Assembly (NCBI GenBank): GCA_963840645.1 | Contig: CAWIZL010000004.1 | Location: forward strand, 395,470 to 459,469 | DNA length: 64,000 nucleotides | From: Candidatus Doudnabacteria bacterium | GTDB lineage: Bacteria; Patescibacteriota; Doudnabacteria; UBA920; VMFF01 | Direction of reading: 5' to 3' | Shown here: positions 9,906 through 47,757 of the stretch, in pieces | How positions within the stretch are numbered: position 1 is the stretch's first letter | Layout of the letters: every line of letters starts with the position of its first letter | Made by a program: the position numbers and the translations under genes | Notes under the pieces: generated by a model | Told to the model about the DNA's origin: nothing | Seen by the model: the letters and a program-made list of their open reading frames with translations, nothing else | The model's database searches: none

Positions 9906-10169
9906 GTGGTGGTGAAGTTTACGGTCGAGCAATTGGAAAACCCGCCGACGGTTTTCGGAATTCTACAGGGAGACTTTGGAGTCAGGGTCTTCTATAACCA
10001 GCAGGCTGGCATCAGAGCTATTGAAGATTTGAGCCAGTTCCTCTCTGGTGAAGAACAAAGAAAGCTGAAAGATCTCGTCCTGTGTGACAGGAAGCTGCCA
10101 GTACATGGCGAGACAGTGGAAATGGAAGAGCTGGTTGCGGAGGCTCTGCCTACCAACTATGTAATGTGA
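9906..10169 (+). CDS. small hypothetical protein
   Basis: 87-aa ORF with SD AAGGAGG upstream of a GTG. Confidence 0.4.
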   Translation: MVVKFTVEQLENPPTVFGILQGDFGVRVFYNQQAGIRAIEDLSQFLSGEEQRKLKDLVLCDRKLPVHGETVEMEELVAEALPTNYVM

Positions 10170-10236
10170 AGATAGATCAAAAGCAAAAGGGCGCAGCGGT
10201 GATTTACCGAAGCGCCCTTTTTTGTTCACAATTATT

Positions 10237-10881
10237 TTACGGTCTCTCTTTGTGCCACGGGGTCCACCCCGCTGGTGCCTTAACCAGAGTGGCCTGCTTC
10301 GGCTCCAGCTTGTATCGTCTGATGGCACGCTGCCATAGGGAATCAACTTGCTCAGAGCCCAGGACATCCTTAGGCAGCAAGCCTTTTGCCTTTGCATTGG
10401 CAATCTCGGTTCCCAGCATTTCCATGAACACGTAACGGACACGGTTGCGACCAACCTCGTCGTCACCGATCTCGTCTGCAACGTACGGAGGTAACGATTG
10501 CTCCTTGGCCTGCGTGAAGAGCTCGTCCGATTGCAGGGTAGATCTGAAGGTGTCGATTTTCTGCTTGAGGCCTCTGGCCTGGCTCATCAAGTACTCATAG
10601 TGCTCTTGGTAGGCCTCGAGCCAGAGTTCTAAATTTTTTTCTTGGTTACCAACTTCTTTTCCATGCGCGATCACCTGGTCGTAGTCCGCCCGTGCCCTGT
10701 CCATCTCTTGCTTGGCCTCTGCCATCATAGCTTCCGCAGCCTGTTCTTCCTCGGGTGTAGCCTCGGCGCGTAGCCCACTGGCTAAATCATAGTCAGCCTG
10801 GGTTTTCTTTAGAGTATCAACGGTCTCCGTGTGGTGCTCTAGGCTCTGGTAGTGCTCGCCTGCGTTGTGTTCGGTGTCCAT
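10237..10881 (-). CDS. hypothetical protein
   Basis: 214-aa ORF with no competing ORF. No obvious SD. Confidence 0.5.
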   Translation of the reverse strand: MDTEHNAGEHYQSLEHHTETVDTLKKTQADYDLASGLRAEATPEEEQAAEAMMAEAKQEMDRARADYDQVIAHGKEVGNQEKNLELWLEAYQEHYEYLMSQARGLKQKIDTFRSTLQSDELFTQAKEQSLPPYVADEIGDDEVGRNRVRYVFMEMLGTEIANAKAKGLLPKDVLGSEQVDSLWQRAIRRYKLEPKQATLVKAPAGWTPWHKERP

Positions 10882-10977
10882 GGGAGTAAGTTATAGTATT
10901 ACGGAAAGTATATCACTTTATTTGCCGGTACAAAAATTCTACGTGGTCAGGATCCTACTGATACTCACCTTAGGCAG

Positions 10978-11171
10978 GACATCCAATCAACTTCACCTGT
11001 AGCCACATGGGAAAGTGTTTGCTCAAGGGGGCACGATCCCGCAACCTTCCGCGCCACAGGCGGACGCTCTACCAGTTGAGCTACACCCACCACGAGTGTA
11101 TGAACCAAGAAACAAAAAACTCTCACACAGAAAAAGTGAAGAGCTTCGGTAACGCCCGCTGTGTCAGGCGC
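10978..11171. repeat. 194-bp direct repeat, right copy
   Basis: See 399..592. Confidence 0.9.
11026..11091 (-). pseudogene. tRNA-His(GTG)-like fragment, second copy
   Basis: Same 66-nt sequence as 447..512 except one base in the 3' strand of the T stem. It also lacks a 3' acceptor strand. Confidence 0.45.
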
Positions 11172-11208
11172 TATTCCTCACGTATCATAGCTTTTTTAAG
11201 ACCCCTCG

Positions 11209-12297
11209 TCAATTCTCATTCGTCTGCACTGGTTTCGCGTACTGGCTCACATCGTTCCACACGGCCTTTGAAATATCTGTCACCATCTGCTGCTGCGCGT
11301 CTAAGCTGCTGCCCTTTGTCATGACGCAGAGCAGGTAGTTGTTGCTGCCGCCAGTGGAATCTTTGCCGTACACAATGCCGCAATCGTGGAACTCGTACAC
11401 CGTTGCGCCGCTGCCATCAGTGGCAGCTTCTGAACGCTCGCCAAACTTGTGAGCAACAGTTGTGCCAGATGGCACACCTGCCACCAAACCGCCCGTGTAG
11501 TCTGTCTGCGTCAGCAGCTCGAGCGCTTGGTTTGAGTAGTTGTGATCAAGGTACGCTGCATTGTACAGCGCACGGAAGAACAGGGCGTAGCTGCGCGGCG
11601 AAATGAAGTCTGCGTTGGTCGTGCTGGTCGAGAGCGGCAGGTTCACGCCAAAGTCTGCAAAAATGTCCTGCACCTTGCTGGCTGTCACCAAGTTCAGCAG
11701 CGCGTTGAACGCGTTGTCGTCAGAGTAGCGAATCATGTACGAGATCATGTCGTTCACCGTGTACGCCTTGCCGAGCGTGATAGACTGCGACGGCTTTATG
11801 TTCTGCGATGGAATGTAGTCTGGTCCGTTGTAGATAATTTTCTGTTGGAGCAGTGCTGGGCTGTCCTCTGCCTCAGAAAGAATTGCCATCATGAGCGGTA
11901 CCTTGCTGAGGCTGCCTGGCGAAAACTGGTCGTCAGGATTGACGCCAACCCAGCTTGGGTCTGTGAGGTCGCGGAAGTAGACACCAATGGTGGTGCCAGA
12001 GTTAGCCTTAACAATTTTTGAGACGTCAGAATCAATGTGCGCCTCGTACGGGTAGCGCTGTTCGTAGAGCTCCTGCGCATTGAGGTCACCCCCAAAGTAG
12101 GGGTTCAAGAGCGGGTACTGCGCCAGTGTCTGTGGCTGCTGCACGTAGTTAGAGAGAGCCAGCACGTTTGGGCCTATTGTGCGTCTCACACGAAAGTAGG
12201 CAGCTGCAAATCCAGCTGCTACAAAAATTGCGGCAACGGCAACAATTGCCCATGCGTTCCTCTTCATCCACCTGCCAAACTGCCGTAGCTTCGCCAT
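11209..12297 (-). CDS. serine hydrolase, class A beta-lactamase-related
   Basis: N-terminal TM anchor. SxxK as SLSK (GSLSKVPLMMAIL), an SDN-like motif (YSDDNAFN), and HKFG in the position of KTG. Confidence 0.7.
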   Translation of the reverse strand: MAKLRQFGRWMKRNAWAIVAVAAIFVAAGFAAAYFRVRRTIGPNVLALSNYVQQPQTLAQYPLLNPYFGGDLNAQELYEQRYPYEAHIDSDVSKIVKANSGTTIGVYFRDLTDPSWVGVNPDDQFSPGSLSKVPLMMAILSEAEDSPALLQQKIIYNGPDYIPSQNIKPSQSITLGKAYTVNDMISYMIRYSDDNAFNALLNLVTASKVQDIFADFGVNLPLSTSTTNADFISPRSYALFFRALYNAAYLDHNYSNQALELLTQTDYTGGLVAGVPSGTTVAHKFGERSEAATDGSGATVYEFHDCGIVYGKDSTGGSNNYLLCVMTKGSSLDAQQQMVTDISKAVWNDVSQYAKPVQTNEN

Positions 12298-14927: not shown

Positions 14928-16799
14928 ATGGCACAGACACGCGAAGACATCAGAAACATTGCAATCATTGCCCACGTTGACCACGGCAAGACAACGCTGG
15001 TTGATGCAATGCTCAAACAGACGCACACGGTCAAAGAAGGTCGCTGAGGGCGCTGACTTGATCATGGACTCAATCGGCAGCTTGAGCGCGAGCGCGGCAT
15101 TACCATCAAGGCAAAAAACGCGAGCGTCATGTACAACAGCGTAAAGATCAACATTGTGGACACGCCAGGCCACGCTGACTTTGGCGGTGAGGTTGAGCGC
15201 ACCTTGAAAATGGCTGACGGCGTGCTGCTTTTGGTAGATGCAAAAGAAGGACCAATGCCACAGACAAAGTTCGTGCTGCGCAAAGCTCTCGAGCTTGGCC
15301 TTCGTGCCATTGTGGTCATCAACAAAATTGACCGTCCAGATGCCCAGATAGACGAAGTGGTGAACAGAACATTTGATTTATTTGTAGACCTGAAGGCAAA
15401 CCACGACCAGCTCGAGTTTCCTATTATTTACGCATCTGCCATTAACGGCGTTGCAGACCCAGACGTGAAGACAGCGCTCGAACGCGCGGCTAGCCACACG
15501 AGCGACATTACTCCCCTGTTCGAAGCTGTCATCAAAAATATTCCAGCACCAACAGTAAACTTAGACGACAGCTTTGCAATGCTGGTTCTGGCAATTAGCT
15601 ACGATGCGTACAAGGGCAAAATGGGTACAGGCAAAATCTACTCTGGCAAGGTAACAAAAGGCCAAGCTGTCACGCAAATTAAGGTTGACGGCACAAAGGT
15701 CAATGGCAAGGTCAGCAACCTCATGGGCTACCAAGGCCTCGGCATGGTTGAAATTCCAGATGCGCTGGCTGGCGACATTGTTTCCATCTCAGGCTTTGAC
15801 GACATCTCCATTGGCGAAACAATTGCCGATGCGGCAAACCCAGTTCAAATTCCACCGGTGAGCATTGAAGAGCCAACAGTGCGCATGACCTTCTCGGTTA
15901 ACAGCAGCCCGTTCGCAGGTCGCGAGGGCAAGTTTGTGACGTCGCGCAACATTCGCGATCGCCTGTTTCGCGAGCTTGAGACAAACGTTGCACTGCGCGT
16001 TGAAGAGACAGGCAGCACAGACAGCTTCTTGGTTTCTGGCCGCGGCGAGCTGCACCTTGGCATCTTAATAGAGACCATGCGTCGTGAAGGCTACGAGCTG
16101 CAAGTTTCTCAGCCAGAGGTCATCTTCAAAACAGATGCCGCAACTGGCAAGAAGCTTGAGCCGTACGAAATTTTGGTCATTGACGTGCCGAGCCAGTACC
16201 AGGGTACCATGATTGAAGAAATGGGCACGCGCGGTGGCGAGCTGTTGAAAATGGACAGCAGCGAGACTTCTGCGTCGAGCGGCAGCACGTCTGAAATTCA
16301 CGCAGAGTACCTTGCGCCTACGCGCGGCATCATTGGCCTGAAGAACGCGCTGCTCACCAAGACGCGCGGCACAGCTGTGGTGAACAACCTGTTTGATTCG
16401 TACCGCCCAGTTGTGATGGAAAAGCCAGACAGCGCAAACTCGCATGGTTCTTTGATAGCATCAGAGGCTGGCGTCTCAAACGCGTATGGCTTGAACAATG
16501 CGCAGGAACGCGGCACGCTGTTCATCAAGCCTGCTGTTGAGGTGTACGAGGGCATGATTGTTGGCAAGAACGCTTTTGACAGCGACCTTGAGATCAATGT
16601 CACGAAAACGAAGAAGCTCTCGAACATGCGCTCGTCTGGTGCTGATGATGCAATTATCTTAACGCCGCCACGCGAAATTACTTTGGACTTGGCACTCGAG
16701 TACATTGGGCCAGATGAACTTGTAGAAGTTACGCCGAAGAGCGTTCGGTTGAGAAAGCGCTACTTAACGATGAATGAGCGCAAGCGCTCCGGAAAGTAA
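14928..16799 (+). pseudogene. typA: translational GTPase TypA/BipA with two closely spaced frameshifts (~15035 and ~15075)
   Basis: [37 protein letters not shown], then two in-frame TGAs. [11 protein letters not shown] is read in the +1 frame. The original frame then resumes: QLERERGITIKAKNASVMYNSVKINIVDTPGHADFGGEVER... (556-aa ORF). Confidence 0.9.
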
Positions 16800-19461: not shown

Positions 19462-19487
19462 AATAAAAATCCCCGTAAGGGGATTTT
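19462..19487 (-). terminator. hairpin plus T-run, probable native terminator downstream of tRNA-Lys before element insertion
   Basis: aaaatcccc-gtaa-ggggatttt; on the minus strand it is followed by TTTTTATT. Confidence 0.55.
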
Positions 19488-19500: not shown

Positions 19501-19563
19501 TGGTGGAGGCTGTGGGACGAAGTTAGAGGGGAGATTGCTAAAATTAACTCGCCCACCTATTGA
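19501..19563 (+). repeat. attL of element A: tRNA-Lys 3'-end core TGGTGGA fused to the orphan recombinase tail (RLWDEVRGEIAKINSPTY*)
   Basis: tgg tgg agg ctg tgg gac gaa gtt aga ggg gag att gct aaa att aac tcg ccc acc tat tga. The core and reading frame match the recombinase A / tRNA-Lys junction at 22922. Confidence 0.75.
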
Positions 19564-19567
19564 TCTT

Positions 19568-20161
19568 TTACAACCTTACTGGAGGCATACCCACCACCAT
19601 TGGCGATGGGCCTGCAAGTATTTCCTGCAATGGGATACCCAGAAACGTTGCTACCTGGTTTGCAATTGAAAGTTCCTTGCCCTGGCCGCTCATCAGCACG
19701 CCCGCCACTGATTGCCCAGAACTCTTGGCGTTTTCTAGCGGCACCTCAGTGCCATCCTTGAAGACAATCACGGACTGCGAGGTGAGCACCTCTTGTGGCA
19801 CTGACATGGCACCCTTTTCAGCAGGTGTGCTCTGCTGCATGTGGTACTCCTTGCGCAACTCAACACGCACGGCATCCTGCGTGGCGTACGCTGCTGACTT
19901 ACCTGCCAGAATGCTCTTCTTTGCAAAAGAAATTTGGCTCCTGTTGATTTGCACTGTGATGCTGCCACTGACCAAGATCAGCACGAGTCCGAAAACAAAG
20001 ACTACGACAGGAACCCAGATAATGTTTGAGAAACCAGAAGTAGCATAGTAGTGGTAGGATAGGTACAAACCTACGAGCAGCAATATTACGCCAATGACCA
20101 AGCTAGAGGCATTGCCATCTTTCAAGGTCATCTCATCTTGTGTCTGGTTCACGATTTTCAT
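19568..20161 (-). CDS. membrane protein, unknown function
   Basis: 197-aa ORF with two N-terminal TM segments. Confidence 0.6.
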   Translation of the reverse strand: MKIVNQTQDEMTLKDGNASSLVIGVILLLVGLYLSYHYYATSGFSNIIWVPVVVFVFGLVLILVSGSITVQINRSQISFAKKSILAGKSAAYATQDAVRVELRKEYHMQQSTPAEKGAMSVPQEVLTSQSVIVFKDGTEVPLENAKSSGQSVAGVLMSGQGKELSIANQVATFLGIPLQEILAGPSPMVVGMPPVRL

Positions 20162-20177
20162 ACCTTAAATGTTAATT

Positions 20178-21212
20178 TTATTGGCTAACTAAATTTAGTG
20201 CTGCTTGGGTGTCGTAGGACGGTTGTCCGCCTACTGTTCCGTCATTTACTTGTTGTATGCCGGTGAGCGTCATCGTGTAGCCGTACAAAGACGTGGAGCC
20301 ATTTACATTCAAAGATACTGACTGGCTCTGCCCAGAAGCATTGTCCTTTACCGTCATGGTGAGCTGGCTCATTGTTAAGTTGGTGACTTGAAAGTAAAGA
20401 GCACCCCCATTGCCGCCGCCGCTTTCACCGGAGCCTTGGTATAGGTCCAACGTTTCTAAACCAGCGCCGAGCGTTGGAGTTGTACCAGCAACTGTTGTTG
20501 GGATTGGAGTTTCAGTTGGCGTAGGTGCTTGCGTTGATGGGAACATTGGCGCGCTCACAGAAGCACTACCCTGCGCCGCTTTCGGCAGGGTAATTTTGCA
20601 GTACTGGTTGAGGGAGGCGGTGGTGGCACTTGAACCCGTTGACGGGTTCTGCCAATCGCCGAGGTAGGTCGCCAAGAGTGGAAGCGTGAACGTGCAGTCC
20701 TGGGTCATGCCGATGCTCACCTGCTGCGACTGGTTGTACTGCGCGATCGACTGCGTGTAGGTATCCAACTGCGCCTGGGTGATTTTACCAGAAGCCAGGT
20801 ACTGGTTTTCCAAGCTGGTGTCAACGACCACGCTGAACGCCGTCCTCGTCGAAAATATGTGGCAGTACTGTCCAGAGTAGCCGAGTATCTGCGCGTGCTC
20901 GCTATCATTGTTTATGACCCCAAGCCCCGTGTTCTGGTTGATTGTGGCGTTCACCTCTGACGGGCTGCACGTCTTCGAGGCAGCAACAAACCCAGCAAAG
21001 TCTGTGCCGTAGTCTTTAGTGTTAGTTGTTGGGGTTGGGGTAACCGCAACCATTGTTGGCGTGGGACTGGCTGTTGGTGCTGAGCTGGGCGTTTGAGTAG
21101 TAGTTTGTGCAGCTTGGATAGGTGCAGGTGTCTGAGTGGAAACCTGCGGAGAAGAATTGCATCCAGCAGCTATGAGGACAACGACGGGCAAAACCAGTAA
21201 AAACCTTTTCAT
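20178..21212 (-). CDS. lipoprotein, Thr/Pro/Gln-rich
   Basis: MKRFLLVLPVVVLIAAGCNSS, a signal peptide with a lipobox. Confidence 0.7.
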   Translation of the reverse strand: MKRFLLVLPVVVLIAAGCNSSPQVSTQTPAPIQAAQTTTQTPSSAPTASPTPTMVAVTPTPTTNTKDYGTDFAGFVAASKTCSPSEVNATINQNTGLGVINNDSEHAQILGYSGQYCHIFSTRTAFSVVVDTSLENQYLASGKITQAQLDTYTQSIAQYNQSQQVSIGMTQDCTFTLPLLATYLGDWQNPSTGSSATTASLNQYCKITLPKAAQGSASVSAPMFPSTQAPTPTETPIPTTVAGTTPTLGAGLETLDLYQGSGESGGGNGGALYFQVTNLTMSQLTMTVKDNASGQSQSVSLNVNGSTSLYGYTMTLTGIQQVNDGTVGGQPSYDTQAALNLVSQ

Positions 21213-21308
21213 TTGGTTGAGGTTATTAATTTACTACAGTGTGGCATGAATTACCCGTTTAAACAAACTTGCTTTCTCTTAGTAAAGCTAGTCCAACCCG
21301 TTTTCGCC

Positions 21309-21469
21309 TTAAGTGGTATATGTATCTAGTATAACGGGAACATGGAGACAGGGGCGCAAAACGCAGGGAGCAGCGTGGGCGCGTGGCAGTGCCACATTGC
21401 CCCCGCAGCCACGGGAGCGGCGAAGAGCTTGAGACAATACCCAAAGGCGAGTATCCTGCTGATACCAAC

Positions 21470-21497
<28 letters not shown>
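21309..21497 (-). CDS. remnant of a small Pro-rich protein (homolog of 27593..27796), 5' end overlapping recombinase A
   Basis: The C-terminus ...NVALPRAHAAPCVLRPCLHVPVILDTYTT aligns in frame with ...GVAAPPRTPPAPCPPVILDI of element B. The N-terminal part is antisense of the recombinase start. Confidence 0.3.
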
Positions 21498-22997
<1,500 letters not shown>

Positions 22998-23027
22998 GCA
23001 TATAATTGTGCGAGCATGCCTAGCGCT

Positions 23028-23140
23028 GGTGGTGCGCACTCTGGGACGAAGTGGGACGAGCACTGCAAAACCACCAACTGAGAGATTATAGCGTAAACAA
23101 TGAAAAAGGGCAACAAATTTGGCAGCAAACTAAAGGCTAG
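23028..23140 (+). repeat. attL of element B: tRNA-Arg 3'-end core GGTGGTGCGC fused to the orphan recombinase tail (ALWDEVGRALQNH...*)
   Basis: ..g tgg tgc gca ctc tgg gac gaa gtg ..., in the same frame as agg tgg tgc gcc at the recombinase B / tRNA-Arg junction. It lies 30 nt from the tRNA-Lys 5' end. Confidence 0.7.
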
Positions 23141-23163
23141 AATTGAGCTCCTTTTACAAATCC

Positions 23164-23192
23164 TTGACAAATAATCATATATATGATACTAT
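23164..23192 (+). promoter_or_regulatory. sigma70-like promoter
   Basis: TTGACA, 17 nt, TACTAT. Confidence 0.55.
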
Positions 23193-23214
23193 ATTAATAG
23201 TCAAGGAGGAATTT

Positions 23215-23499
23215 ATGAAGCAAACCAGAAGCAAACGGCACGAAGTCGCAGGTGCTCGCCACGGCGAGCAGTACCTGCTCTACGCAACGATCGAAGAAGC
23301 CTCGGCGGCAACCACGAGGGCAATGGCCAAGGTCAAGCAGCCCTACGAGCTGCCGTACAGGACGCGCGTAGACCATGCCACGTACATGCGACTGTGCAAG
23401 CGCAAAACAGGATTGCCTGTAGACGCTCGCCCGCGGCGCATTGCGCGGATGAACCGCTCCGAAATGCACAGAGCATTCGGACCACTGTCAGTCTGGTAG
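23215..23499 (+). CDS. small basic hypothetical protein
   Basis: MKQTRSKRHEVAGARHGEQ... with SD AAGGAGG. Confidence 0.5.
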   Translation: MKQTRSKRHEVAGARHGEQYLLYATIEEASAATTRAMAKVKQPYELPYRTRVDHATYMRLCKRKTGLPVDARPRRIARMNRSEMHRAFGPLSVW

Positions 23500-23577
23500 C
23501 AAAACACGACCCGGTAGCTTCTCAAAGCTATCGGGTTTGTCATTAAATTTTTCAATGCTACAATTAGCACATTACCA

Positions 23578-24111
23578 ATGGATAAGAAAATACGCATGGA
23601 TTCAGAATTGACACCACACACAGGAGAACCAACACTGAGCGCGAGCGAACGTCAGGGAAACGAAGCGCAGCTTAGACGAGATCGAATTAGACTTGAATAC
23701 CATATTACCGATGAAGAAGGTTTACGCTTTACAGAAAAATTGAAAGAGAAAATCCTTTCGTTACCAGAGGAGCCATCCACAGAAGCAATCGTGGACAGCA
23801 TGGATAGCGCGTTTGAAGGTAATGACGACAGAACTTTAGAAATCAAAAACGCTTACATGGACAGCCTGGCTGGGAAAGCCGCTGAGATGATACATTTCTA
23901 TCTCACCCCAGATCAGCAACTTTTGGCAGAACCGTTCACCGAAAGGCTGCGCGAGCATGTTTCAGGTGAGCACAGGTTTACGAGCTTCGCCGATGCCTAC
24001 GAGGAACTATCTAAGAATCAAAATACCCTCGCCAAGATGGGCTTCGATAAGGATGCACTGGTAAAAATGTTTTTCATTGAACTCAAAGATTATTTGCAGC
24101 AGGCCAAATAG
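23578..24111 (+). CDS. acidic hypothetical protein
   Basis: 177-aa ORF with no competing ORF. Confidence 0.5.
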   Translation: MDKKIRMDSELTPHTGEPTLSASERQGNEAQLRRDRIRLEYHITDEEGLRFTEKLKEKILSLPEEPSTEAIVDSMDSAFEGNDDRTLEIKNAYMDSLAGKAAEMIHFYLTPDQQLLAEPFTERLREHVSGEHRFTSFADAYEELSKNQNTLAKMGFDKDALVKMFFIELKDYLQQAK

Positions 24112-24150
24112 TCTTCTGTTTTTGAAAAGAAAAATTGCTAAAAATAAGCT

Positions 24151-24939
24151 CTAGCTCTTCCAGGCAAAGATACTTCCTGCCACGTGCTGTTCTTCAAATA
24201 CATTCGCAGGATTAATCTTCAATAGCTCGGCGGTCAGCTCTTTTTCGTAGGCCGTAGCTCTGTCTCCAAATAATCTCCTTGTAGCGTAAGATGTGGTGTA
24301 CTGGCCATTGATAATATCCTCAGCCGTTACCACCTGCACTGCCGAAGGGTACTTCTTGTACCCCAACCTTTCAAAGCCAGCCCGCCTTAAAATTTCTTCA
24401 TGTTTCTCTGGCTCTATCTTGAACAACCCATCTCCCGCTCGCCGCTCACTACCCAAATATTTTTTGATGACCTCTAATACTTTCTCTTCCCACACGCTGC
24501 GCTCCTTATTCCATATGCTCTGGCCAGTCCACGTTATGAAGATGCCACCATCTTCATCCAGTATCTTGGATGCTAACTTTGCAAATCTTTCTCTGTCCAG
24601 CCAGTGGAACGATGAGCCGAGCGTGACTAGCTTGAATTTACCAACCTCTTCGTTCAACTCATCACCCGACTTGTTGAGCCACTGGATGTTTTCAACCCCA
24701 AATTGATGCGCTCTTTCTCGTCCAGCCTCTGCCATGCCAGGGTCAACCTCGACCGCGACTACCTCTTTAAAATATTTGCTCAGCGGTACTGCGAGAACAC
24801 CTGGACCAGAGCCAACATCGAGTAACCTGCCCTGTCCGTTCAAGCCAAACTTAGCTACAACGTCCTCAAACATTTCTTGTGGGTAAGGTGCGCGGTACTT
24901 GGCGTAGTATTTTGACGTGCCATCGAAAAGTGTTTTCAT
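24151..24939 (-). CDS. class I SAM-dependent methyltransferase
   Basis: Motif I LLDVGSGPGVLA followed by an acidic residue at the end of beta-2 (VAVEVD). Confidence 0.85.
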   Translation of the reverse strand: MKTLFDGTSKYYAKYRAPYPQEMFEDVVAKFGLNGQGRLLDVGSGPGVLAVPLSKYFKEVVAVEVDPGMAEAGRERAHQFGVENIQWLNKSGDELNEEVGKFKLVTLGSSFHWLDRERFAKLASKILDEDGGIFITWTGQSIWNKERSVWEEKVLEVIKKYLGSERRAGDGLFKIEPEKHEEILRRAGFERLGYKKYPSAVQVVTAEDIINGQYTTSYATRRLFGDRATAYEKELTAELLKINPANVFEEQHVAGSIFAWKS

Positions 24940-25622
24940 GCTATCCCAATTTGCACAATTGCTTCTATCTTCTCAACGAGCATCCGCGTCTCGTCATCGT
25001 AGGCTACGTCTCCCCGCTCACCGTACTTCTTGATCCTCAGGTACTCGCCCCACACGCGCTCTCGCCCGAATGCGTACGTATGCCACGTGGTAGCATCCAG
25101 GATTATGTCGGTATTTGGGTAAACTGCGCTAAAAGTTTTCTGAACGAGCTTTGCGGTTGGCAAAAATTTCCTCAGCGTGAGGTACGCCCGCCGTGAAGCG
25201 TGGCTCTTGAAAACGTAGAGTACTTTTTCGTACGAGCTAAAATCTAAAACCTTTAGTGATTCGGTTACGTTCTCAAGGGTGTTAGCTGAAGTAGTTTCCG
25301 AGTAAAACTCCACACCAGGAAAATCTGTCTTATCTATTCTATCCAGCACGTAAGAGCTTTCTGGCTTCTCTATTCCGTTAACGCCGCCGTACTTAGCCGA
25401 TGAGCCGCCACTGATGAAAACTTTTTTTGAGATGTTGTGATTGAGAAGATCGGTTATGATGCCCACCACAATATCAGGCTCAAGTGGTGTAGAGAATACG
25501 AAGATTAGATCTGCTGGCTCAATTGGATCATCACGACGAAAGCAAAGCTGGGTGACCAGCTTGATAGCCTCATCACTTAGCTCAGGAACTGCTGGATGTC
25601 GATCCACTTCTCTTGCTTGCAT
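24936..25622 (-). CDS. YdcF/DUF218-like protein
   Basis: Pattern ...VFISGGSS...E...YSETTSANTLENV... is typical of DUF218. The stop overlaps the next gene's start by 4 nt. Confidence 0.6.
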   Translation of the reverse strand: MQAREVDRHPAVPELSDEAIKLVTQLCFRRDDPIEPADLIFVFSTPLEPDIVVGIITDLLNHNISKKVFISGGSSAKYGGVNGIEKPESSYVLDRIDKTDFPGVEFYSETTSANTLENVTESLKVLDFSSYEKVLYVFKSHASRRAYLTLRKFLPTAKLVQKTFSAVYPNTDIILDATTWHTYAFGRERVWGEYLRIKKYGERGDVAYDDETRMLVEKIEAIVQIGIA

Positions 25623-25633
25623 TTATGGATCTC

Positions 25634-26368
25634 TTAATACAACTTAGCTAACTTTTTTAGCTTTTCACCCGTTGGCGTGGAGGTAATTTTTTGAATATTT
25701 TCAGTCTGAAATTTCAACACGTCTACAGTTTTATTTGGTGTATACGTTTGGGCTTCATTAGAAAACTGGGATACTCCATACTTCCTAACGTTAAACTTCT
25801 TATCGGCAGTAGATTTTTTTAACTCGTTTACCTTCGCATCATCACCTTCAGGTAGGGCATCAATTTGAAATTCATCATGAATTGTTGCGAGCATTCTCTG
25901 TGCAACTTTTGCCCTTTCTTCCGTTGAGATCCAAAAGAAATTATTTTGGCGATTAACAAAATCCTCGATAATCTCAGAAGAATTATAGAACGAGTTTAGG
26001 AGCTGGAGCTGATCGATATCAAAATCTCTCACGAATAGGTGTGAGTACTTTCTCCAATTATTTGTGGGCAAAACAGAGGGCAGATCACCAATGTTATTTG
26101 AACGTAGTTTTTCAATGATGATATCAATCTTGGCTTCAGCATTCCTGATTTCGAAAATTACAGTTGTAGCGGCGTTTGTTTTGATATCCAGTTGTTGTTT
26201 GTTATAGACGAACAGAGCGAAACTGCCAACTACAAATGTAACAGTTGCGAAAAAGAAACTACTGTTAGCAAAATGAGAATGCGCTTTATATAACCACAAT
26301 CCACCAAGCACATAAAGAACATAGATGATTGCCAATAACAGGTAGGGATTGGATTTAATTTTTTTCAT
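25634..26368 (-). CDS. membrane-anchored hypothetical protein
   Basis: 244-aa ORF with two N-terminal TM segments. Confidence 0.55.
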   Translation of the reverse strand: MKKIKSNPYLLLAIIYVLYVLGGLWLYKAHSHFANSSFFFATVTFVVGSFALFVYNKQQLDIKTNAATTVIFEIRNAEAKIDIIIEKLRSNNIGDLPSVLPTNNWRKYSHLFVRDFDIDQLQLLNSFYNSSEIIEDFVNRQNNFFWISTEERAKVAQRMLATIHDEFQIDALPEGDDAKVNELKKSTADKKFNVRKYGVSQFSNEAQTYTPNKTVDVLKFQTENIQKITSTPTGEKLKKLAKLY

Positions 26369-26432
26369 AAAATTCTTTAGTGGTTGACTGATTAGAATAG
26401 TCGAGGCGAACGAATCATCTTTTCTTATTTTT

Positions 26433-27371
26433 CTAAATTAGTCTCCTGACCTTGTAGATAAAGCACCCTGGCTTTATTTTGTACGCCCCGTCCTCATTTT
26501 TGTAAACTGACAAGTCTTTCTCTAGAGAGTTTAGGATTTCTTCAACATCGGGATTTTGGTTGAAGTGGCACTCCATGTGAAAGTTCATGTAGTACTCTAG
26601 GACTGCCTCCGTGTTTTCAAAGACCAGCGGCTCTCCAATTAAGTGGCTGACCTCGGCTTCTACGATGCCATCCCTCTGTAATTTTTCCAGCACCGCATCA
26701 ACAGCCAGCTTTGAGGGGCTTTGCTTGTCAGGGTTGTGGAAAACAGGGTTGTCTCTCTTGCGCTGACTTATTGACGGACGCTGCTCATCTGACAGAGAAT
26801 CGAAGTGCGTCAGAAAAAATAGACCGCCCACGTTCAAAGTTTTTGTAAACAATCTATTTAGCGCGGCTTCAATTTTTGGCACACCTTTTTCTAGACCATC
26901 TATTTTTAGATGCTGGTGCACGGAGTGAGACAGGCTCCACATGCTGAATACCAAATCGTAGCTGCTCTCTGTAGAGTTTATGAAATCTATGGTGTCAGAC
27001 TGAACTGTATTGACGTTATGGTAATCAGCCAGTAAGGACTTGGCATGTTCCAGCATTGTGCGGCTCAGGTCAACGAGGTCTATCTTCTCGTAGTTAGACA
27101 GAGCCTCTAAAACTGGCATCGTCGCCCTAGCTGAACCACAGCCAAACTCCAAAATGCTTTTTACTTTCTGTTCTTTCTGAACAGCCTCTTGAAGGTATGC
27201 CAAATCGTCCTTGCCATCAAAAATGTACCTCTTCAGTATGGTACTGTACTCGTGCGGATCGAGGTAAAGGCCTTCGTCAGGCTGTAGCTTAAGCCACGCG
27301 TAATCTTTTCTTTGCATTGAATTCTTTAATCTCTTGGTAATTGCCGAAGTATGCTTGGTATATTCTGCCAT
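26433..27371 (-). CDS. class I SAM-dependent methyltransferase
   Basis: Motif I ILEFGCGSARAT, then DLVDLS. Confidence 0.8.
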   Translation of the reverse strand: MAEYTKHTSAITKRLKNSMQRKDYAWLKLQPDEGLYLDPHEYSTILKRYIFDGKDDLAYLQEAVQKEQKVKSILEFGCGSARATMPVLEALSNYEKIDLVDLSRTMLEHAKSLLADYHNVNTVQSDTIDFINSTESSYDLVFSMWSLSHSVHQHLKIDGLEKGVPKIEAALNRLFTKTLNVGGLFFLTHFDSLSDEQRPSISQRKRDNPVFHNPDKQSPSKLAVDAVLEKLQRDGIVEAEVSHLIGEPLVFENTEAVLEYYMNFHMECHFNQNPDVEEILNSLEKDLSVYKNEDGAYKIKPGCFIYKVRRLI

Positions 27372-27406
27372 AATATTTTAAACTTTGCAATGTTACCAAG
27401 AAAAAA

Positions 27407-27582
27407 TTGACTTCTTCCCCCAACAGGAATATGCTGCTCTTGGTAACGAAAGTTACTAACCTACTTACGTCCTACCCAGCAAACGTTAGTTTTAGCTAAG
27501 GTCGCGGATATCACTTTTGATATTTCTTAGCTAGGCGAAATTCGTAGTGTACCAGAATACCAGACCACAATCTGGTTTTTTT
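27407..27582 (+). promoter_or_regulatory. promoter plus ~140-nt structured transcript ending in a terminator (candidate sRNA or leader upstream of recombinase B)
   Basis: TTGACT (27407), 17 nt, TATGCT (27430). Internal hairpins (tagctaag...cttagcta; atatca...tgatat). accaga-ccacaa-tctggt followed by T7 at 27559-27582. Confidence 0.35.
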
Positions 27583-27592
27583 CGTGCACACT

Positions 27593-27796
27593 ATGAAGTA
27601 CAGCCAACAATTGCAGGATAGGCTGAAAGCCTACCTGTTAGAACTGAATGGTGTCCAAATTACCACAGACGAGGCTGAGGCTTACTTGGATTCTATGGCT
27701 AGCTACTTTCTGCTCGTTGGCAAGCGCGGCGAGGGTGTCGCGGCACCGCCGCGCACCCCGCCTGCTCCCTGCCCCCCAGTTATACTTGATATATAG
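27593..27796 (+). CDS. small protein with Pro-rich C-terminus
   Basis: MKYSQQLQDRLKAYLLELNG...PPRTPPAPCPPVILDI. The C-terminus is conserved in element A. No SD. Confidence 0.4.
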   Translation: MKYSQQLQDRLKAYLLELNGVQITTDEAEAYLDSMASYFLLVGKRGEGVAAPPRTPPAPCPPVILDI

Positions 27797-27885
27797 CTCA
27801 CTTAATCCGAAAATGGAAACAATGAAACATCTGTTCTTGAATGTCAAAGTGGCAAAAGAAATTTTTAAGTAGTAGAATGCCTACC

Positions 27886-29403
27886 ATGAACATTCTCTAC
27901 TGCCGTAAATCATCAGAAGCCGCTGACAGACAGGTGGCATCCATAGATTCCCAGAAAGACACCCTGCTTGAGCTGGCTGAAAAGTCTGGCTTGGGTGATG
28001 TTAAAATTTTCACCGAGAGCATGTCCGCCAAAGAACCAGGCAGGGTAGAGTTTGCAAAAATGATTACGCTGGTCAAGGCAAACCCAGGCAGCACATTGCT
28101 CGTGTGGAAACTAGACAGGCTTGCTCGTAATCCCGTAGATGAGGGAGAAATAAAATGGCAGTTGCAGATTAAAACAATTGCACGAATCATCACGCCCGAG
28201 AGAACCTACTACCCAGAAGACAACTCTTTGATCGCCTCTGTGGAGTTCGGCATGGCAACTCAGTACATCAAAGATTTGTCTGCCAACGTAAAGCGCGGCA
28301 ACAAGAGCAGACTAGAAAAAGGTGGGCTGCCTGGCGCAGCACCGATTGGCTACTTGGACAACAAGCTCACCAAGCACAAAGAGGTTGACCCTGTGAGGTC
28401 AGTCTTCATCAGGCAAGCATTCGAACTGTACGCCACTGGTGGGTACTCGCTCAAGCAGATCAACGTAATGATGCACGAGAAAGGCTTGCGCAGTAAGGGT
28501 GGGCTGAAACTCAGCAAGTCGAAGATGCACTACATGCTACAGAACCCCTTCTACCACGGCATCATCCGCAGGGACGGACAATTTTACAACGGCGCACATG
28601 AGCCGCTGGTGTCCACACAACTGTTCCAAGACGTACAGCGCGTCCTGTCGGGCAAGTCTCGCCCACGACCTCAGAACCACTTCTTCCACCTTAGAGGCAT
28701 GGTGTCATGCGCCCAGTGTGGCTGCGCCTACACTGGCTCAGACAAGAAAGGCCACGTGTACTACTACTGCACGAACGGACGAGGCAAGTGCGATCAACAT
28801 AAAAAGTACATCAGCAAGAAAGCTATCGATGAGCTGACTGCAAAACTCTTCACCGAAATTCAGTTCTCCGAAGAAGCCATTGAGATTGGATACCTTGCCG
28901 CCAAGGAAAACGCCGTTGCACAGTCCAGCTCTTCGCACACCCAAGAAAGCGAATCCTCCAAGAGGCTCAAGATCGTCCGCCAGCAGCTCGCGAACCTCGT
29001 GGAGGTAATCGCGACTGACCCGAGCACGGTGAACGTGCTCAAGCCCCAAATCTTGTCTCTGGAGGCGGAAGCAAAAGCAATCGAGGGTCAGGTTTCAACT
29101 GCCAAGCCCCAAACGCTCGATGAAGCCTTATCTACTTTGGAACAAACAAAAAAGGCCTTTCTACAGGCCTCTTCTGCTAGTTCTGACTATTCAAATGGCA
29201 CTGATGCGTACAAGTTTGAAATGCTCAAAAATTTACTTTGGAACTTTTCACTGGAAGACCAAACTGTGCAGTCGTACCAGTTCAAAACGCCGTTTTCTCT
29301 GCTCGCCAAATCCCCTAAAAACCTCGATTTGGACAGGTGGTGCGCCCGGCAGGATTCGAACCTGCTACCTTGTGGTTCGAAGCCACACGCTCTATCCAAA
29401 TGA
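27886..29403 (+). CDS. large serine recombinase B
   Basis: Paralog of A, with most positions identical by eye. Zinc ribbon CAQCGCAYTGSDKKGHVYYYCTNGRGKCDQH. The last ~22 codons are antisense of tRNA-Arg. Confidence 0.9.
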   Translation: MNILYCRKSSEAADRQVASIDSQKDTLLELAEKSGLGDVKIFTESMSAKEPGRVEFAKMITLVKANPGSTLLVWKLDRLARNPVDEGEIKWQLQIKTIARIITPERTYYPEDNSLIASVEFGMATQYIKDLSANVKRGNKSRLEKGGLPGAAPIGYLDNKLTKHKEVDPVRSVFIRQAFELYATGGYSLKQINVMMHEKGLRSKGGLKLSKSKMHYMLQNPFYHGIIRRDGQFYNGAHEPLVSTQLFQDVQRVLSGKSRPRPQNHFFHLRGMVSCAQCGCAYTGSDKKGHVYYYCTNGRGKCDQHKKYISKKAIDELTAKLFTEIQFSEEAIEIGYLAAKENAVAQSSSSHTQESESSKRLKIVRQQLANLVEVIATDPSTVNVLKPQILSLEAEAKAIEGQVSTAKPQTLDEALSTLEQTKKAFLQASSASSDYSNGTDAYKFEMLKNLLWNFSLEDQTVQSYQFKTPFSLLAKSPKNLDLDRWCARQDSNLLPCGSKPHALSK

Positions 29404-29414
29404 GCTACGGGCGC
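29338..29414 (-). tRNA. tRNA-Arg(TCG)
   Basis: GCGCCCG TA GCTC ATTTGGATA GAGC G TGTGG CTTCGAA CCACA AGGTA GCAGG TTCGAAT CCTGC CGGGCGC A CCA. Confidence 0.92.
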
Positions 29415-29523
29415 ATGACGTACTCTGCACCAAATTATACCGTAGCCATTAAAAAAATTCAATGGCAGGAAACAAAAGGTCACCCCAGATTAATCCTTAC
29501 GAGTTTACTTTGGCACCAGGTAG

Positions 29524-36612: not shown

Positions 36613-37679
36613 CTTGGTTTCAATAGTCTAGCGCAACGAGGTGATATGCTCACCTCGTATGAACACACCAAACTACAGGCGTCTCTCCGGCCGTGAACGG
36701 GAGGAGATCAGCAGGGGCTTGGCGGCTGGTTCTTCCCGAGCGGACATCGCACTCCAGCTCGGCAGGAGCACGAGCACGGTTGCCCGAGAGGTTGCGGGCA
36801 ACAGCGGCGCCAGCGGGTACCGGGCGTTCTCGGCTGGGCAGCGTGCGCGGGCTGCGGCGGCAGCCCGCAGGGGTGGGATCCGCCGCCTCGACCGTGAGCC
36901 GCGGCTCCGCGCGTACGTGGTCGCGGGGCTGCGGAAGCGGTGGTCGCCGCGGGAGGTCGTCAGGCGGATGAAAATGGAGTATGCTGCTGACAGCAGTATG
37001 CGCATCTCCCACGAAGCCATCTACCAGTACATCTACGTCTTGCCGCGGGGCAGCCTGAAACAGGAGCTGGTCTCGGCGCTGCGCCGCGAGCACGCCTACC
37101 GCAGGAAGACCGGCGGCAAGGGGCGGCCCGGGGAAGCGCGCGGCAGGATAGCCGGGATGCTCTCCATCGAGGAGCGCCCAGCCGAGGCTGCCGACCGAAC
37201 CGTGCCAGGCCACTGGGAGGGCGACCTGATCCTGGGGAGGCACAAGCGGTCTGCCCTCGGCACGCTCGTGGAGCGCACCACGCGGTACACGATCCTCGTG
37301 CCGCTCGGCCGCCAGAAAGATGCCGCCAGCGTACGCCGGGCGTACGCGCGAGCTTTCCGCTCGGTGCCGCAGGAGCTGGCGAAGACGCTCACGTACGACC
37401 AGGGCAAGGAGATGTCCCAGCACGCGAGGTTCACCGTTGCCACGGGCATCCAGGTCTACTTCGCACACCCGGCATCCCCGTGGGAGCGGGGCACGAACGA
37501 GAACACGAACGGGCTCATCCGGCAGTACTTCCCGAAGGGCACCGAGTTCGACAAGGTCTCCACGCGGGAGGTCAAGCGGGTGCAGCGGCAGCTGAACGAC
37601 CGGCCGAGGGCGGCGCTAAGCTTCTACAAGCCAGACGAAATCTTTAACCGACTCGTTGCGCTAAATGTTTGAAACCAAG
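36613..37679 (+). mobile_element. IS30-family insertion sequence, strongly GC-rich relative to its surroundings
   Basis: Terminal inverted repeats cttggtttcaatagtctagcgcaacgag (36613-36640) and ctcgttgcgctaaatgtttgaaaccaag (37652-37679). Single transposase ORF. Confidence 0.85.
36659..37672 (+). CDS. IS30 family transposase
   Basis: N-terminal HTH-like region. DDE region HWEGDLI...TLTYDQGKEM...YFAHPASPWERGTNENTNGLIRQYFPKG. Confidence 0.9.
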   Translation: MNTPNYRRLSGREREEISRGLAAGSSRADIALQLGRSTSTVAREVAGNSGASGYRAFSAGQRARAAAAARRGGIRRLDREPRLRAYVVAGLRKRWSPREVVRRMKMEYAADSSMRISHEAIYQYIYVLPRGSLKQELVSALRREHAYRRKTGGKGRPGEARGRIAGMLSIEERPAEAADRTVPGHWEGDLILGRHKRSALGTLVERTTRYTILVPLGRQKDAASVRRAYARAFRSVPQELAKTLTYDQGKEMSQHARFTVATGIQVYFAHPASPWERGTNENTNGLIRQYFPKGTEFDKVSTREVKRVQRQLNDRPRAALSFYKPDEIFNRLVALNV

Positions 37680-37718: not shown

Positions 37719-37794
37719 TGGAGCGGGCTGTGGAACGAGGTTCGAAGGGAGATAGCTAAGAATTCTACTTTTCAAACAGGCTAACGTACTCGAA
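37719..37794 (+). repeat. orphan tail c2: TGGAGCGGG plus [18 protein letters not shown]
   Basis: tgg agc ggg ctg tgg aac gag gtt cga agg gag ata gct aag aat tct ... taa. Confidence 0.7.
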
Positions 37795-38896
37795 CAGCTC
37801 GAAGGATCTATTACGTGAGTACCCTGTTTTTTCCTTTAGAATACCCTTACGCTCAAACTCGCCCACCAAACGCGTAGCCGTAACGAAAGCAACGCCCAAA
37901 TTTTCAGCAATTTGATTGAGGCTCATGATGGGCTGTGAAAAAAGAGCCACGAGAAATACCTGACCCAGCTCAGCGCGCTTACCCATTTCTAATATTTTTT
38001 TGCCGTAACGTTCCCGAAGCATGACAATCTTCTCGAGGGTCGTCTTCCCCTTTGTAGCTGTTTCAATGATACCAGACAGAAAAAACCTGATCCATTGTTC
38101 AATGTCGTTTGACGCACGCGCAACGGTGAGCGCATCGTAGTATGACCCCTTGTTTCGCTCAAAAAAATCAGAAAGGTACAGAGTTGGCTTCTTGAGTACG
38201 CCTGCATCTACAAGCTGGAGCGTGATGAGCAGGCGGCCGGTTCTCCCGTTGCCATCGAGGAATGGGTGAATCGTTTCAAACTGGTAGTGGCTCATGGCCA
38301 TTTTGATGAGCAGGGGGATCTCAAGCTGCTTGCTGTGCCAAAATCTTTCTAGGTCGGAAAGAAGCTCGGCTAGCTCATTTGGATGCGGGGGAACAAAAAC
38401 AGCATCTTTCAAGCTTGACCCGCCAATCCAGTTTTGGCTCGTTCGAACTTCGCCCGGCATCTTGCGCTCACCTCGAACGCTCGTGAGCAGCACCTTGTGG
38501 GCATCCTTGAGCAGCCGCATTGAGAGAGGCAGCTTGCTGAGATTTTTGATTGATTGGTTAATTGCAGCCACGTAGTTCTGCAAGCTCTTTCCAGTCATCA
38601 CGTCGTTCTGGGTTCACGTCTTCTCTAGACAAGAGAGCTTCGTCAATTCTCGTCTTTGTACCCTCAATACGGCTCGATGTGGTCGCCTCTTTTGTAATGT
38701 GCATGCGGATAAAGTAATCTATATCTGGCACGAGGGTCGAGTAAGCATTCAGTTCACCCAACAGGCGCATTGCCTCACCGAGGAGCACGTTGATCTTTGG
38801 ATCTTGCCAAACAAAAAGTTTGTTGATCGGCAGTGGGCTGAAGCTCTTGTACTCAAACTGTTGCTTGTAGGAACCTGCTTTGAAAGCTGTTGGCAT
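37765..38896 (-). pseudogene. Fic family protein, split by a frameshift near 38596-38612
   Basis: N-terminal ORF 38558..38896 and C-terminal ORF 37765..38601 carrying the Fic motif [12 protein letters not shown]. The junction reads ..EDVNPE / [13 protein letters not shown]. Confidence 0.85.
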
Positions 38897-38991: not shown

Positions 38992-39085
38992 CCTTACGGT
39001 GCAACAAAAAACACCAATGTTTAGTTGGTGTTTTTTGCTGGAGCGGGCTGTGGAGCGAGGTTCGAAGGGAAATAATTAAGAATAT
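38992..39085 (+). repeat. copy of the tRNA-Gly downstream flank (38992-39038) plus orphan tail c3 (TGGAGCGGG plus LWSEVRREIIKN...)
   Basis: ccttacggtgcaacaaaaaacaccaa is identical to 47711-47736. A hairpin follows, then tgg agc ggg ctg tgg agc gag gtt cga agg gaa ata att aag aat. Confidence 0.7.
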
Positions 39086-39102: not shown

Positions 39103-39858
39103 CTAACGGAGCTGCTCTTGGTGATTCCCCTCAAAAATTGGGTGGACACTCTTGACCATGTAGCCACCTTTTTCCAGCAATAGCTCATAAACCATGTTCT
39201 TGCGCTCAAGGACGACCATCCACCCATACTTGGCTGCTTCTTCGTACAACGCAGCGTTCGGATTGAAAGCAATGGGGTGGTCAACAACTGATAAAAAAGA
39301 ACTGTCGCGGTGCGTGTCGCCAACGCCAATGCTATCTTCCATGGTCAACCCCCGTTCTGCGACAATGTCGGCAAGCAGCTTCTCCTTGTTCTTGTTTGTT
39401 TGGCTCAACCGCTTGCCAGTGTACAAGCCATTGTTCACCTCAAGCTCAGAAGATGTCACGACGTCAAAACCAAGCGCGTATGCAAATGGCTCTACGATAT
39501 CCTTGATTGAACCAGAAATAGCAATGAGCGTGCGCCCTTCCTTCTTTAATTTTTCAATTAAGTTGATCGTGTACGCGTAGCAGTATTTTCCTTTGACGGC
39601 GAGAACCTCGTGGACAACGTTTGCCATTTGCGCAGGACTGACCTGGGGCGTAATTTTTTCAAACACTTCGAGGATAGCCTTGTTGTATGCCCAGTAGCTC
39701 TCTGTGGAACCACGCTCCTTCCACACTTTCTTGGCTTCCTGCACCTGCTTGCGCTCTGGTTCAAGGTTAAGCTTTTCAATTAGTGCTTCGGCAACATCGA
39801 AGGTCAACGTGTGCGTATACACTGTACCGTCTAGATCAAAAATGGCAAATTTATTCAT
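39103..39858 (-). CDS. HAD-superfamily hydrolase (subfamily IB-like)
   Basis: MNKFAIFDLDGTVY (DxDxT), ...ISGS..., ...GVGDTHRD. Confidence 0.85.
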   Translation of the reverse strand: MNKFAIFDLDGTVYTHTLTFDVAEALIEKLNLEPERKQVQEAKKVWKERGSTESYWAYNKAILEVFEKITPQVSPAQMANVVHEVLAVKGKYCYAYTINLIEKLKKEGRTLIAISGSIKDIVEPFAYALGFDVVTSSELEVNNGLYTGKRLSQTNKNKEKLLADIVAERGLTMEDSIGVGDTHRDSSFLSVVDHPIAFNPNAALYEEAAKYGWMVVLERKNMVYELLLEKGGYMVKSVHPIFEGNHQEQLR

Positions 39859-47508: not shown

Positions 47509-47757
47509 GTCCGTGATGACCTCCAAATCGAATTTGACAACGTGCCTTCTGGCACACACCTTCACACATGATCCTCCGTGGTACTAAAGAATCTTGCGGG
47601 AAAGGTTTTGGTGACGATGTTCGAGACCAAAATGCTTCCCACAAAATTACTCTGTATTATACAAAAATTAGTAGAAAAATCAAGGTGATTGGGCTGCTAG
47701 GTTCGACTCCCCTTACGGTGCAACAAAAAACACCAAGTAAATACTGGTGATTCTTTT

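Follow-up and report, generated by a model that had tools for sequence, protein, structure and literature searches.

Why does a recombinase gene run past its own domains into the antisense strand of a tRNA gene, and why does what looks like the rest of its reading frame lie 6.3 kb away? This question is raised by recB, one of two paralogous large serine recombinase (LSR) genes in a 64,000-nt stretch of a Candidatus Doudnabacteria genome (contig CAWIZL010000004.1), referred to below as the window. Our answer is that window positions 23028..29345 are very probably a 6.3-kb integrative element, element B, inserted by recB at the extreme 3' end of tRNA-Arg(TCG). We read B as a recombinase-induced insertion because of its core repeat, the in-phase family tail behind that repeat, and the evidence from the whole family of related elements. 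The features on which the argument turns are these:

22922..22997, minus strand: tRNA-Lys(CTT), called by ARAGORN; left neighbor of element B and target of a second element, A
23028..23037, plus strand: attL (far-end) core of B; copies the 3'-terminal 8 nt of tRNA-Arg and 2 nt of its trailer, reverse complement GCGCACCACC
23030..23140, plus strand: displaced end of the recB frame, the putative P' arm of attP; reads W-C-ALWDEVGRAL...KG and then a stop
23042..23047, plus strand: TGGGAC in the P' arm of B
23051..23058, plus strand: degenerate zinc-ribbon-type motif GTGGGACG in the P' arm of B
27841..29403, plus strand: recB, an LSR gene whose last 19 codons are antisense tRNA-Arg
29336..29345, plus strand: attR (tRNA-proximal) core of B; second exact copy of GGTGGTGCGC
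29338..29414, minus strand: tRNA-Arg(TCG), called by ARAGORN; intact, the target of B

The 3' end of recB (...gac agg tgg tgc gcc cgg cag gat tcg aac ctg...) is the antisense of tRNA-Arg. There are only two exact copies of the decamer GGTGGTGCGC in the window, both on the plus strand, and chance alone would give about 0.006 exact copies on that strand in the 6.3 kb upstream. The original prediction, made from the sequence alone, had proposed a second, paralogous element in tRNA-Arg bounded by this 10-nt repeat. The far copy is where it was said to be, at 23028, whereas the near copy, implied at 29338..29347, was off by 2 nt and lies at 29336..29345. The claim that the recombinase frame crosses the junction in phase, 30 nt from tRNA-Lys (spacer 22998..23027), also holds. 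Translated in the codon phase of recB, the far copy, which opens with W-C-ALWDEVGRALQNH..., reads W-C-ALWDEVGRALQNHQLRDYSVNNEKGQQIWQQTKG up to a stop at 23138..23140. The tRNA-Arg T-loop, TTCGAAC on the plus strand, starts 19 nt past the core start. The GC content is 0.41-0.46 across 24-28 kb, the cargo of B, versus about 0.52 in the flanks. With an intact tRNA, a displaced copy of its 3' end and an on-board integrase gene between them, B carries the Islander signature. Its sites, as reconstructed from the two ends, are as follows:

attP of B, short form: cctcgatttggacaGGTGGTGCGCactctgggacgaagtgggacgagc
attB of B, short form: gcgagcatgcctagcgctGGTGGTGCGCccggcaggattcgaacctgc
attP_B junction 40-mer: cgatttggacaGGTGGTGCGCactctgggacgaagtg
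attB_B junction 40-mer: gcctagcgctGGTGGTGCGCccggcaggattcgaacc

The enzyme expected to have made the insertion is encoded within it, and it has a close relative at the neighboring tRNA:

21383..22963, plus strand: recA, a paralogous LSR gene with its end antisense to tRNA-Lys and the attR core of element A at 22922..22928

Pfam places the Resolvase, Recombinase and Zn_ribbon_recom domains in both recA and recB; in recB the resolvase-type catalytic domain PF00239 (E 1e-18) is accompanied by PF07508 and PF13408. The start of recB can be read at more than one point, as the database protein P0001 begins at 27877 and the conserved MNILYCRKSS at 27886. Residues Y8, R10, S12, D80, R81 and R84 are invariant among 22 family members, and so are the zinc-ribbon cysteines in the family alignments. 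In the AlphaFold model of a family free-form protein (one with an uninterrupted tail), residues 312-451 form a long helical hairpin, the coiled coil in the zinc ribbon. The nearest solved structure to recB is the C-terminal domain of the A118/LI integrase (4KIS, E ~1e-4). Both recombinase open reading frames (ORFs) are intact and of full length, and the two proteins are 72% identical, with the likeness extending right to the tRNA end. At the DNA level they share 73-74% identity with a longest exact run of 29 nt, so that the proposal that they serve as long repeats for homologous deletion does not fare well; they would be a weak substrate. A Pfam search of the ORFs found no second resolvase-domain ORF in the cargo of B.

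A repeat and a tail at one locus could be a peculiarity of that locus, and the family evidence bears directly on this. We found 857 homologues of recB at E<=0.001 among 8,000 candidates scored, and most of those with a named source are attributed to groups of Patescibacteria (the candidate phyla radiation, CPR). As annotated, most of the proteins finish with ...DSN(L/P/Q)..., the peptide obtained when a tRNA T-arm is translated in antisense; a smaller number have a longer tail bearing a WD(E/D)V(G/R)T motif. When species were scanned with one genome each, at least 551 loci were returned, and the best 80 were analyzed. An antisense tRNA overlaps the recombinase 3' end in 61 of these 80, and 12 isotypes are targeted (Gln 24, Ser 15 and ten others). 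The displaced tail was found 4.0-13 kb upstream in 44 of the 61 (median, 5.8 kb); in 13 of the remaining 17 the locus extends less than 4 kb upstream. In each case the tail stands directly behind a 4- to 14-nt repeat of the extreme tRNA 3' end, and this repeat is in the codon phase of the recombinase in 34 elements, with 7 ties and 3 out of phase. These two counts, 61/80 and 44/61, bear out the proposal of a second element in tRNA-Arg. A rolling-circle Rep gene (PF23343) lies directly upstream of the recombinase in 62/80 loci. Like the other members, B has a recombinase of this clade that is convergent with and overlaps a tRNA 3' end, and a P' arm at its far end.

The original prediction had also suggested comparing recombinase phylogeny with target tRNA, and the two do correlate. 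The nearest recombinase neighbor has the same tRNA isotype in 35 of 63 cases, versus 13 expected by permutation. All nearest-neighbor pairs above 75% identity agree in isotype; recA and recB, at 73%, differ in target tRNA. A scan of IMG/VR returned almost no family members, and a phage origin is therefore not supported. In a limited full-text search of the literature (Patescibacteria/CPR combined with serine recombinase, tRNA, attP or rolling-circle), the family was not described. Thus, the recB element belongs to a large, apparently undescribed, tRNA-targeting family in Patescibacteria.

Some members of the clade stand apart. Contig L155 carries two recombinases. Recombinases of the clade also occur on contigs with non-Patescibacteria labels (L091, L093, L098, L114, L115, L136, L141, L143, L148, L149 and L155); the labels on these metagenome-assembled genome records include Legionella, Bdellovibrionales, Chlorobiaceae, Gammaproteobacteria and Fimivivens, which suggests mis-binning, mislabeling or a wider host range. 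On L087 (~11470..11500) the recombinase tail ...WLGW*DSNL is tRNA-antisense-like, yet ARAGORN calls no tRNA; the site may be an atypical or intron-containing tRNA gene.

Full-length recombinase genes with an uninterrupted tail are found on small contigs that carry no tRNA at that end, and three such contigs are circular, at 4.3-5.6 kb. Circularity is indicated by a 121-nt terminal overlap in L167 and a 30-nt terminal overlap in L171, while two samples yielded one 4,602-bp circle in circularly permuted form, as L169 and L170, with 100% identity. A full-length attP-form recombinase with Rep also occurs in L001, at 10001..11521, within a 164-kb contig and not on a small circle; the genes beside it are for restriction-modification, namely an EcoRI-type methylase and one coding for a GmrSD/HNH protein.

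We then asked whether the conserved tail is a piece of protein or a piece of DNA. The far-end consensus is TGG nAC GAn GTT nGA ACn. The tails were chosen by peptide score, which leaves synonymous positions unbiased, and it is at these positions that the conservation stands out. The Asp of the motif is GAC in 29/33 tails versus a 41% background in the same genes (p 3e-8), the Gly is GGA in 29/29 versus 29% (p 4e-16), and the Val is GTT in 32/38 versus 37% (p 3e-9). Where the amino acid changes (Asp/Tyr/Asn; Gly/Arg), its codon keeps the second and third bases (nAC, nGA). Because synonymous codons are fixed while amino acids vary, the constraint is largely on the DNA. Past the motif the tails show no relationship to one another, and the median distance to their stop is 16 codons. 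For a free-form protein, the AlphaFold model has high confidence up to ...SPKNLILSDWL, and the predicted local distance difference test (pLDDT) score falls below 50 from the next residue, which is the junction; the alignment behind the model is shallower over the tail, so that this drop is supportive only. Thus, the conserved tail "peptide" is largely a DNA signal and does not count as evidence for a functional alternative C-terminus, and the swapped tail is probably dispensable.

What the signal consists of becomes apparent when the far end is laid beside the tRNA. The far-end TTnGAAC is exactly 5 bp farther from the core than the T-loop TTCGAAC of the tRNA in 32 of 36 scorable elements, and the same +5-bp shift is present in window elements A and B. 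GGA is at equal distance from the core in both arms. The P' arm is the GGA-TTCGAAC of the T-arm with five inserted bases, GGA-CGAnG-TTnGAAC. A rule of this kind has been described for the LI integrase of Listeria by Rutherford et al., in which the zinc-ribbon motif of attB is 5 bp nearer the center than that of attP while the recombinase-domain contacts are unmoved (PMC3783163). In the present family, too, the motif is 5 bp closer to the center in attB than in attP, in the right arms only. Two recognizable half-sites in imperfect dyad symmetry were not found: information in the B arm is below 0.4 bit per position, and the pattern in the coding P arm is compatible with protein-level constraint only.

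From these pieces the following course of events can be proposed. In the circular form, attP would span the last codons of recB, with the P arm coding ...SPKNLDLDRW and the P' arm read as ALWDEVGR.... Crossover would take place within GGTGGTGCGC, where the exact dinucleotide can be placed only presumptively. Integration would part the arms of attP, so that the P' arm would land 6.3 kb off, beside tRNA-Lys. The integrated recB would keep its whole folded part and gain a junk tail from the antisense tRNA, and the tRNA would be unchanged. The zinc-ribbon domain would read the T-loop TTCGAAC in attB and its mimic TTnGAAC, 5 bp farther out, in attP; this assignment of domains to motifs follows from the rule for LI integrase and is put forward on that analogy. 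Codon-phase continuity is best explained by an attP that lies across the gene end.

The original prediction had argued that the same core-plus-frame logic holds at two different tRNAs, and element A, in which recA ends antisense to tRNA-Lys, provides the second case:

19466..19487: hairpin and T-run left of element A; 13 nt past tRNA-Lys once A is removed
19501..22928: element A, in tRNA-Lys
19501..19563, plus strand: far end of element A; core TGGTGGA at 19501..19507, then the displaced tail WWRLWDEVRGEIAKINSPTY and a stop
attP_A junction 40-mer, reconstructed: gattctgacgaaTGGTGGAggctgtgggacgaag
attB_A junction 40-mer, reconstructed: ttagaattttgtgctTGGTGGAccgggtgggattc

The copies of TGGTGGA that bound A are at 19501 and 22922. 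The core at 19501 is followed, in phase, by RLWDEVRGEI, which contains the motif common to A and B. A scoring matrix trained exclusively on far ends from other genomes gave its top two matches over the six frames of the window at 23036 (25.2) and 19507 (21.3), the far ends of B and A, while the maximum over 20 shuffled windows was 15.1. The cores of A and B are each specific to their own tRNA. In all likelihood, A was made in the same manner as B, by the paralogue of recB, which is 72% identical to it. The far end of A had been missed by a search for 9- to 10-mers because its true core is only 7 nt long. Two exact leads from that search were rejected: 5865 is a terminator hairpin, and 15401 is inside typA.

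If both elements are lifted out, an original tRNA-Arg/tRNA-Lys tandem follows logically from their boundaries. The hairpin at 19466..19487 would terminate this reconstructed unit, and the same layout of tRNA-Lys and terminator occurs at unoccupied tRNA-Lys(CTT) genes in L165 and L166. Only these two metagenome contigs share the exact tRNA-Lys half, and they come from a distant relative, whose holA, adjacent as in the window, is 30% identical. In both (L165 708..1854; L166 1516..3454), a terminator directly follows a tRNA-Lys(CTT) that is nearly identical to the one in the window; tRNA-Arg(TCG) lies about 1 kb off in convergent orientation, separated from it by a nucleotidyltransferase gene, and neither tRNA has an element at its end. 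The two contigs bear on unoccupied tRNA ends and not on the tandem.

Several observations weigh against the account of B given here. No empty tRNA-Arg site was found in species-genome or metagenome collections that contain no close relative of the source genome, with tRNA-Lys 5' end, 15-45 nt and tRNA-Arg 3' end as the pattern. The Rep gene that most family loci have is absent from 19.0-29.5 kb of the window. The P' motif of B, GTGGGACG, differs from GTTnGAAC at 3/6 specified bases. Across the family, neither left arm, the P arm in the coding sequence or the B arm in the chromosome, contains an inverted copy of the right-arm motif, and among minimal cores no one index yields a non-palindromic central dinucleotide for all members; the shared cores of 4-14 nt bracket the crossover without fixing it. 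No directionality factor was identified.

The absence of Rep raises the question of whether B can still move. It is quite possible, even if we lean the other way, that A and B are immobilized relics, that is, fixed islands that integrated as proposed and no longer excise or replicate. Besides the missing Rep gene, the P' arms of A and B both lack the terminal AC of TTnGAAC (the motif of A, GTTAGAGG, differs from GTTnGAAC at 2 specified bases), and about six recombinase-less P'-type relics lie near tRNA-Gly in the same genome. However, the recombinase ORFs are intact, the core repeats are perfect and the tRNA is untouched; other members, L085 and L168, also lack Rep; B retains a small ORF of the family; and the differences in the arms could be a specificity peculiar to the clade. 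B may still be active, and relic status leaves the mode of its arrival unaffected.

A second reading would move the meaning of the tail from DNA to protein. The enzyme from the circle, with its WDEVG tail, would be competent for integration, while the integrated copy with its tRNA-antisense tail would be altered, which would place the enzyme under integration-dependent control. In its favor, the frame is open through the motif in every member, the first base of nGA is never T (TGA stops in 0/42), and there is a precedent in the hypothesis for dsiB (PMC3146451), with a like proposal for Mx8 IntP/IntX. We nevertheless think it unlikely. That synonymous positions are fixed while amino acids vary points to selection on DNA, the tails are not conserved beyond the motif through their median of 16 codons, their pLDDT is below 50, and the missing T in nGA could equally be a base preference of the DNA-binding domain.

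It is similarly improbable, in our view, that only the right arms carry specificity, as a T-arm and its mimic expanded by 5 bp, in which case attL and attR would act as attP and attB. If this were true, it would allow excision without a directionality factor and repeated insertion of units at one tRNA, and it would explain a 12-kb recombinase-less array at tRNA-Gly, described below, in which every unit would end with a P'-type site, as a cassette-like store served in trans by enzymes of the recA or recB type; the tail swap might then additionally tune enzyme activity.

Finally, that there is no element at all, and a resident recB abuts tRNA-Arg by chance with a repeat that owes its existence to coincidence or to recA having been duplicated locally, draws on recA and recB being each other's closest relatives at 73% and on a 10-mer repeat that by itself is only moderately improbable, and it is hardly credible against an in-phase far-end motif that is the best match in the window to an independent matrix, the same architecture in 44 unrelated genomes and at 12 tRNA isotypes, cores of A and B that are each tRNA-specific, and a GC dip over the cargo.

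Thus, we return to B as an integrated element, between whose ends the following features lie, together with one promoter match just outside:

23085..23113, minus strand: sigma-70-like promoter match, TTGCCC-17-TATAAT, inside the left end of B and facing tRNA-Lys; a match to consensus only
23216..23499, plus strand: cargo ORF of 94 aa, from an ATG after a GGAGG ribosome-binding site; no family match
23578..24111, plus strand: cargo ORF of 177 aa; no family match
24151..24939, minus strand: S-adenosylmethionine (SAM)-dependent methyltransferase (Methyltransf_25/11)
24936..25622, minus strand: DUF218 protein (Pfam)
25634..26368, minus strand: 244-aa protein with a hydrophobic N-terminus; no family match
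26433..27371, minus strand: second SAM-dependent methyltransferase (Pfam)
27584..27796, plus strand: small ORF conserved across the family, elsewhere upstream of Rep and the recombinase
29434..29462, minus strand: sigma-70-like promoter match upstream of tRNA-Arg

Searches of Pfam and PHROGs gave no match for the cargo of A or for four ORFs of B. By tblastn, the small ORF (60-77 aa) recurs in at least 14 loci of the family, each time immediately ahead of the Rep or recombinase genes (for example, L001 8967..9155, L171 2512..2745 and L168 432..638). It matches nothing in Pfam or PHROGs and is a candidate regulator or directionality factor. The promoter match at 23085..23113 could substitute for the promoter lost when B split tRNA-Lys from tRNA-Arg. 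Given that recombinase and tRNA invariably converge, any transcript that reads through from the tRNA would run antisense to the recombinase gene.

Elsewhere in the window, the 3'-end 9-mer of tRNA-Gly(tcc), TGGAGCGGG, occurs at 35632, 37719, 39039 and 45974, where 0.44 copies are expected. The copies at 37719 and 39039 are followed by in-phase P'-type tails, GLWNEVRREI and GLWSEVRREI; more tail relics lie at 35757 and 40493, and those at 42702 and 45991 are of a second type. To the left of 39039, positions 38992..39017 and a hairpin repeat the sequence that borders tRNA-Gly on its left (47711..47736). The 12 kb from 35632 to 47766 contain neither a recombinase nor Rep, and this segment resembles an array whose members are either units without a recombinase or relic far-end sites. 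Inside it are an IS30-like transposase (rve and HTH_38), a Fic/DOC protein with a Crp-type helix-turn-helix and a haloacid dehalogenase (HAD) hydrolase (36641..37672, 37765..38601 and 39103..39858). Farther to the left, the TypA/BipA ORF at 15129..16799 fails to cover some 65 positions at the start of the GTPase domain profile; its true start may be upstream, or there may be a frameshift.

What emerges more broadly is a large clade of tRNA-targeting serine integrases with a T-arm-mimicking attP inside the integrase gene. That one clade systematically targets tRNA genes with serine integrases runs contrary to reviews and to island-finding tools (PMC4383910), and island finders limited to tyrosine integrases will miss these elements of Patescibacteria. 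With attB as the T-arm and attP as the T-arm plus 5 bp, the family is a natural test of the zinc-ribbon spacing model for the discrimination of attP from attB. It also suggests how a target switch between tRNAs might be made, with the T-loop contact kept and a few core bases changed. Because the T-loop sequence is universal, these enzymes may merit examination as integrases with natural landing sites in many genomes and may be of use in genome engineering. For annotation, the recombinase C-termini given in most genomes are integration artifacts, and the conserved "motif" of the free form is a DNA site and no protein feature.

The phage LSRs (Listeria A118/LI, phiC31, Bxb1 and SPbeta) have the same domains as the present family, catalytic, recombinase and coiled-coil zinc ribbon, and likewise use short att sites. 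LI integrase and the present family further share a right-arm motif that is 5 bp farther from the center in attP than in attB (PMC3783163). They differ in that the sequence similarity is weak (E ~1e-4 to 4KIS), and the phage enzymes target a protein-coding gene, whereas the present family targets a tRNA gene. Unlike those of the phage LSRs, attP in the present family lies inside the integrase ORF and the sites are strongly asymmetric, with a right-arm motif only. Its carriers are plasmid-like elements of 4-10 kb with a rolling-circle Rep and are not phages.

Among elements at tRNA genes, the group behind Islander and TIGER has stated that no serine integrase is known to use a tRNA gene (PMC4383910), or has given 14/297 serine integrase tRNA cases as in need of experimental proof (PMC7192596). 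Islander-type islands and integrative elements like pSAM2 (actinomycete integrative and conjugative elements) resemble B in that the island lies between an intact tRNA and a displaced 3' copy, with the integrase proximal to the tRNA; pSAM2 and the wider present family also both have a replication initiator beside the integrase. However, those elements use tyrosine integrases and have longer repeats, whereas the sole recombinase of B is of the serine type. An attP within a tyrosine integrase gene is found in the Myxococcus phage Mx8 (intP/intX) and in Sulfolobus SSV1, where integration alters the C-terminus or splits the gene. As tyrosine recombinases, these enzymes differ from the present family in their chemistry and in the structure of their sites, and the SSV1 gene is split midway and inactivated.

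The closest precedent is provided by the ssrA islands of Dehalococcoides and their serine recombinase DsiB (McMurdie 2011, PMC3146451). There, as in B, the 3' end of the LSR gene overlaps the att site, as it always does in those islands, and runs antisense into a small stable-RNA gene; as in the present family, the stop codon lies outside the element, and further islands can be stacked downstream of the target. That only the circle carries the complete gene was already suggested for DsiB (PMC3146451). The DsiB islands differ in their target, the tmRNA gene ssrA, in their repeat of about 20 bp, and in their six-gene integration module with a small serine recombinase, DsiA, and ParB-, RecF- and Mom-like genes; Pfam found no DsiA-, ParB-, RecF- or Mom-like domains in the cargo of B. 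For the DsiB islands, neither a Rep-LSR module nor a T-loop or 5-bp analysis is reported, whereas the present family acts with a single recombinase at tRNAs of 12 isotypes.

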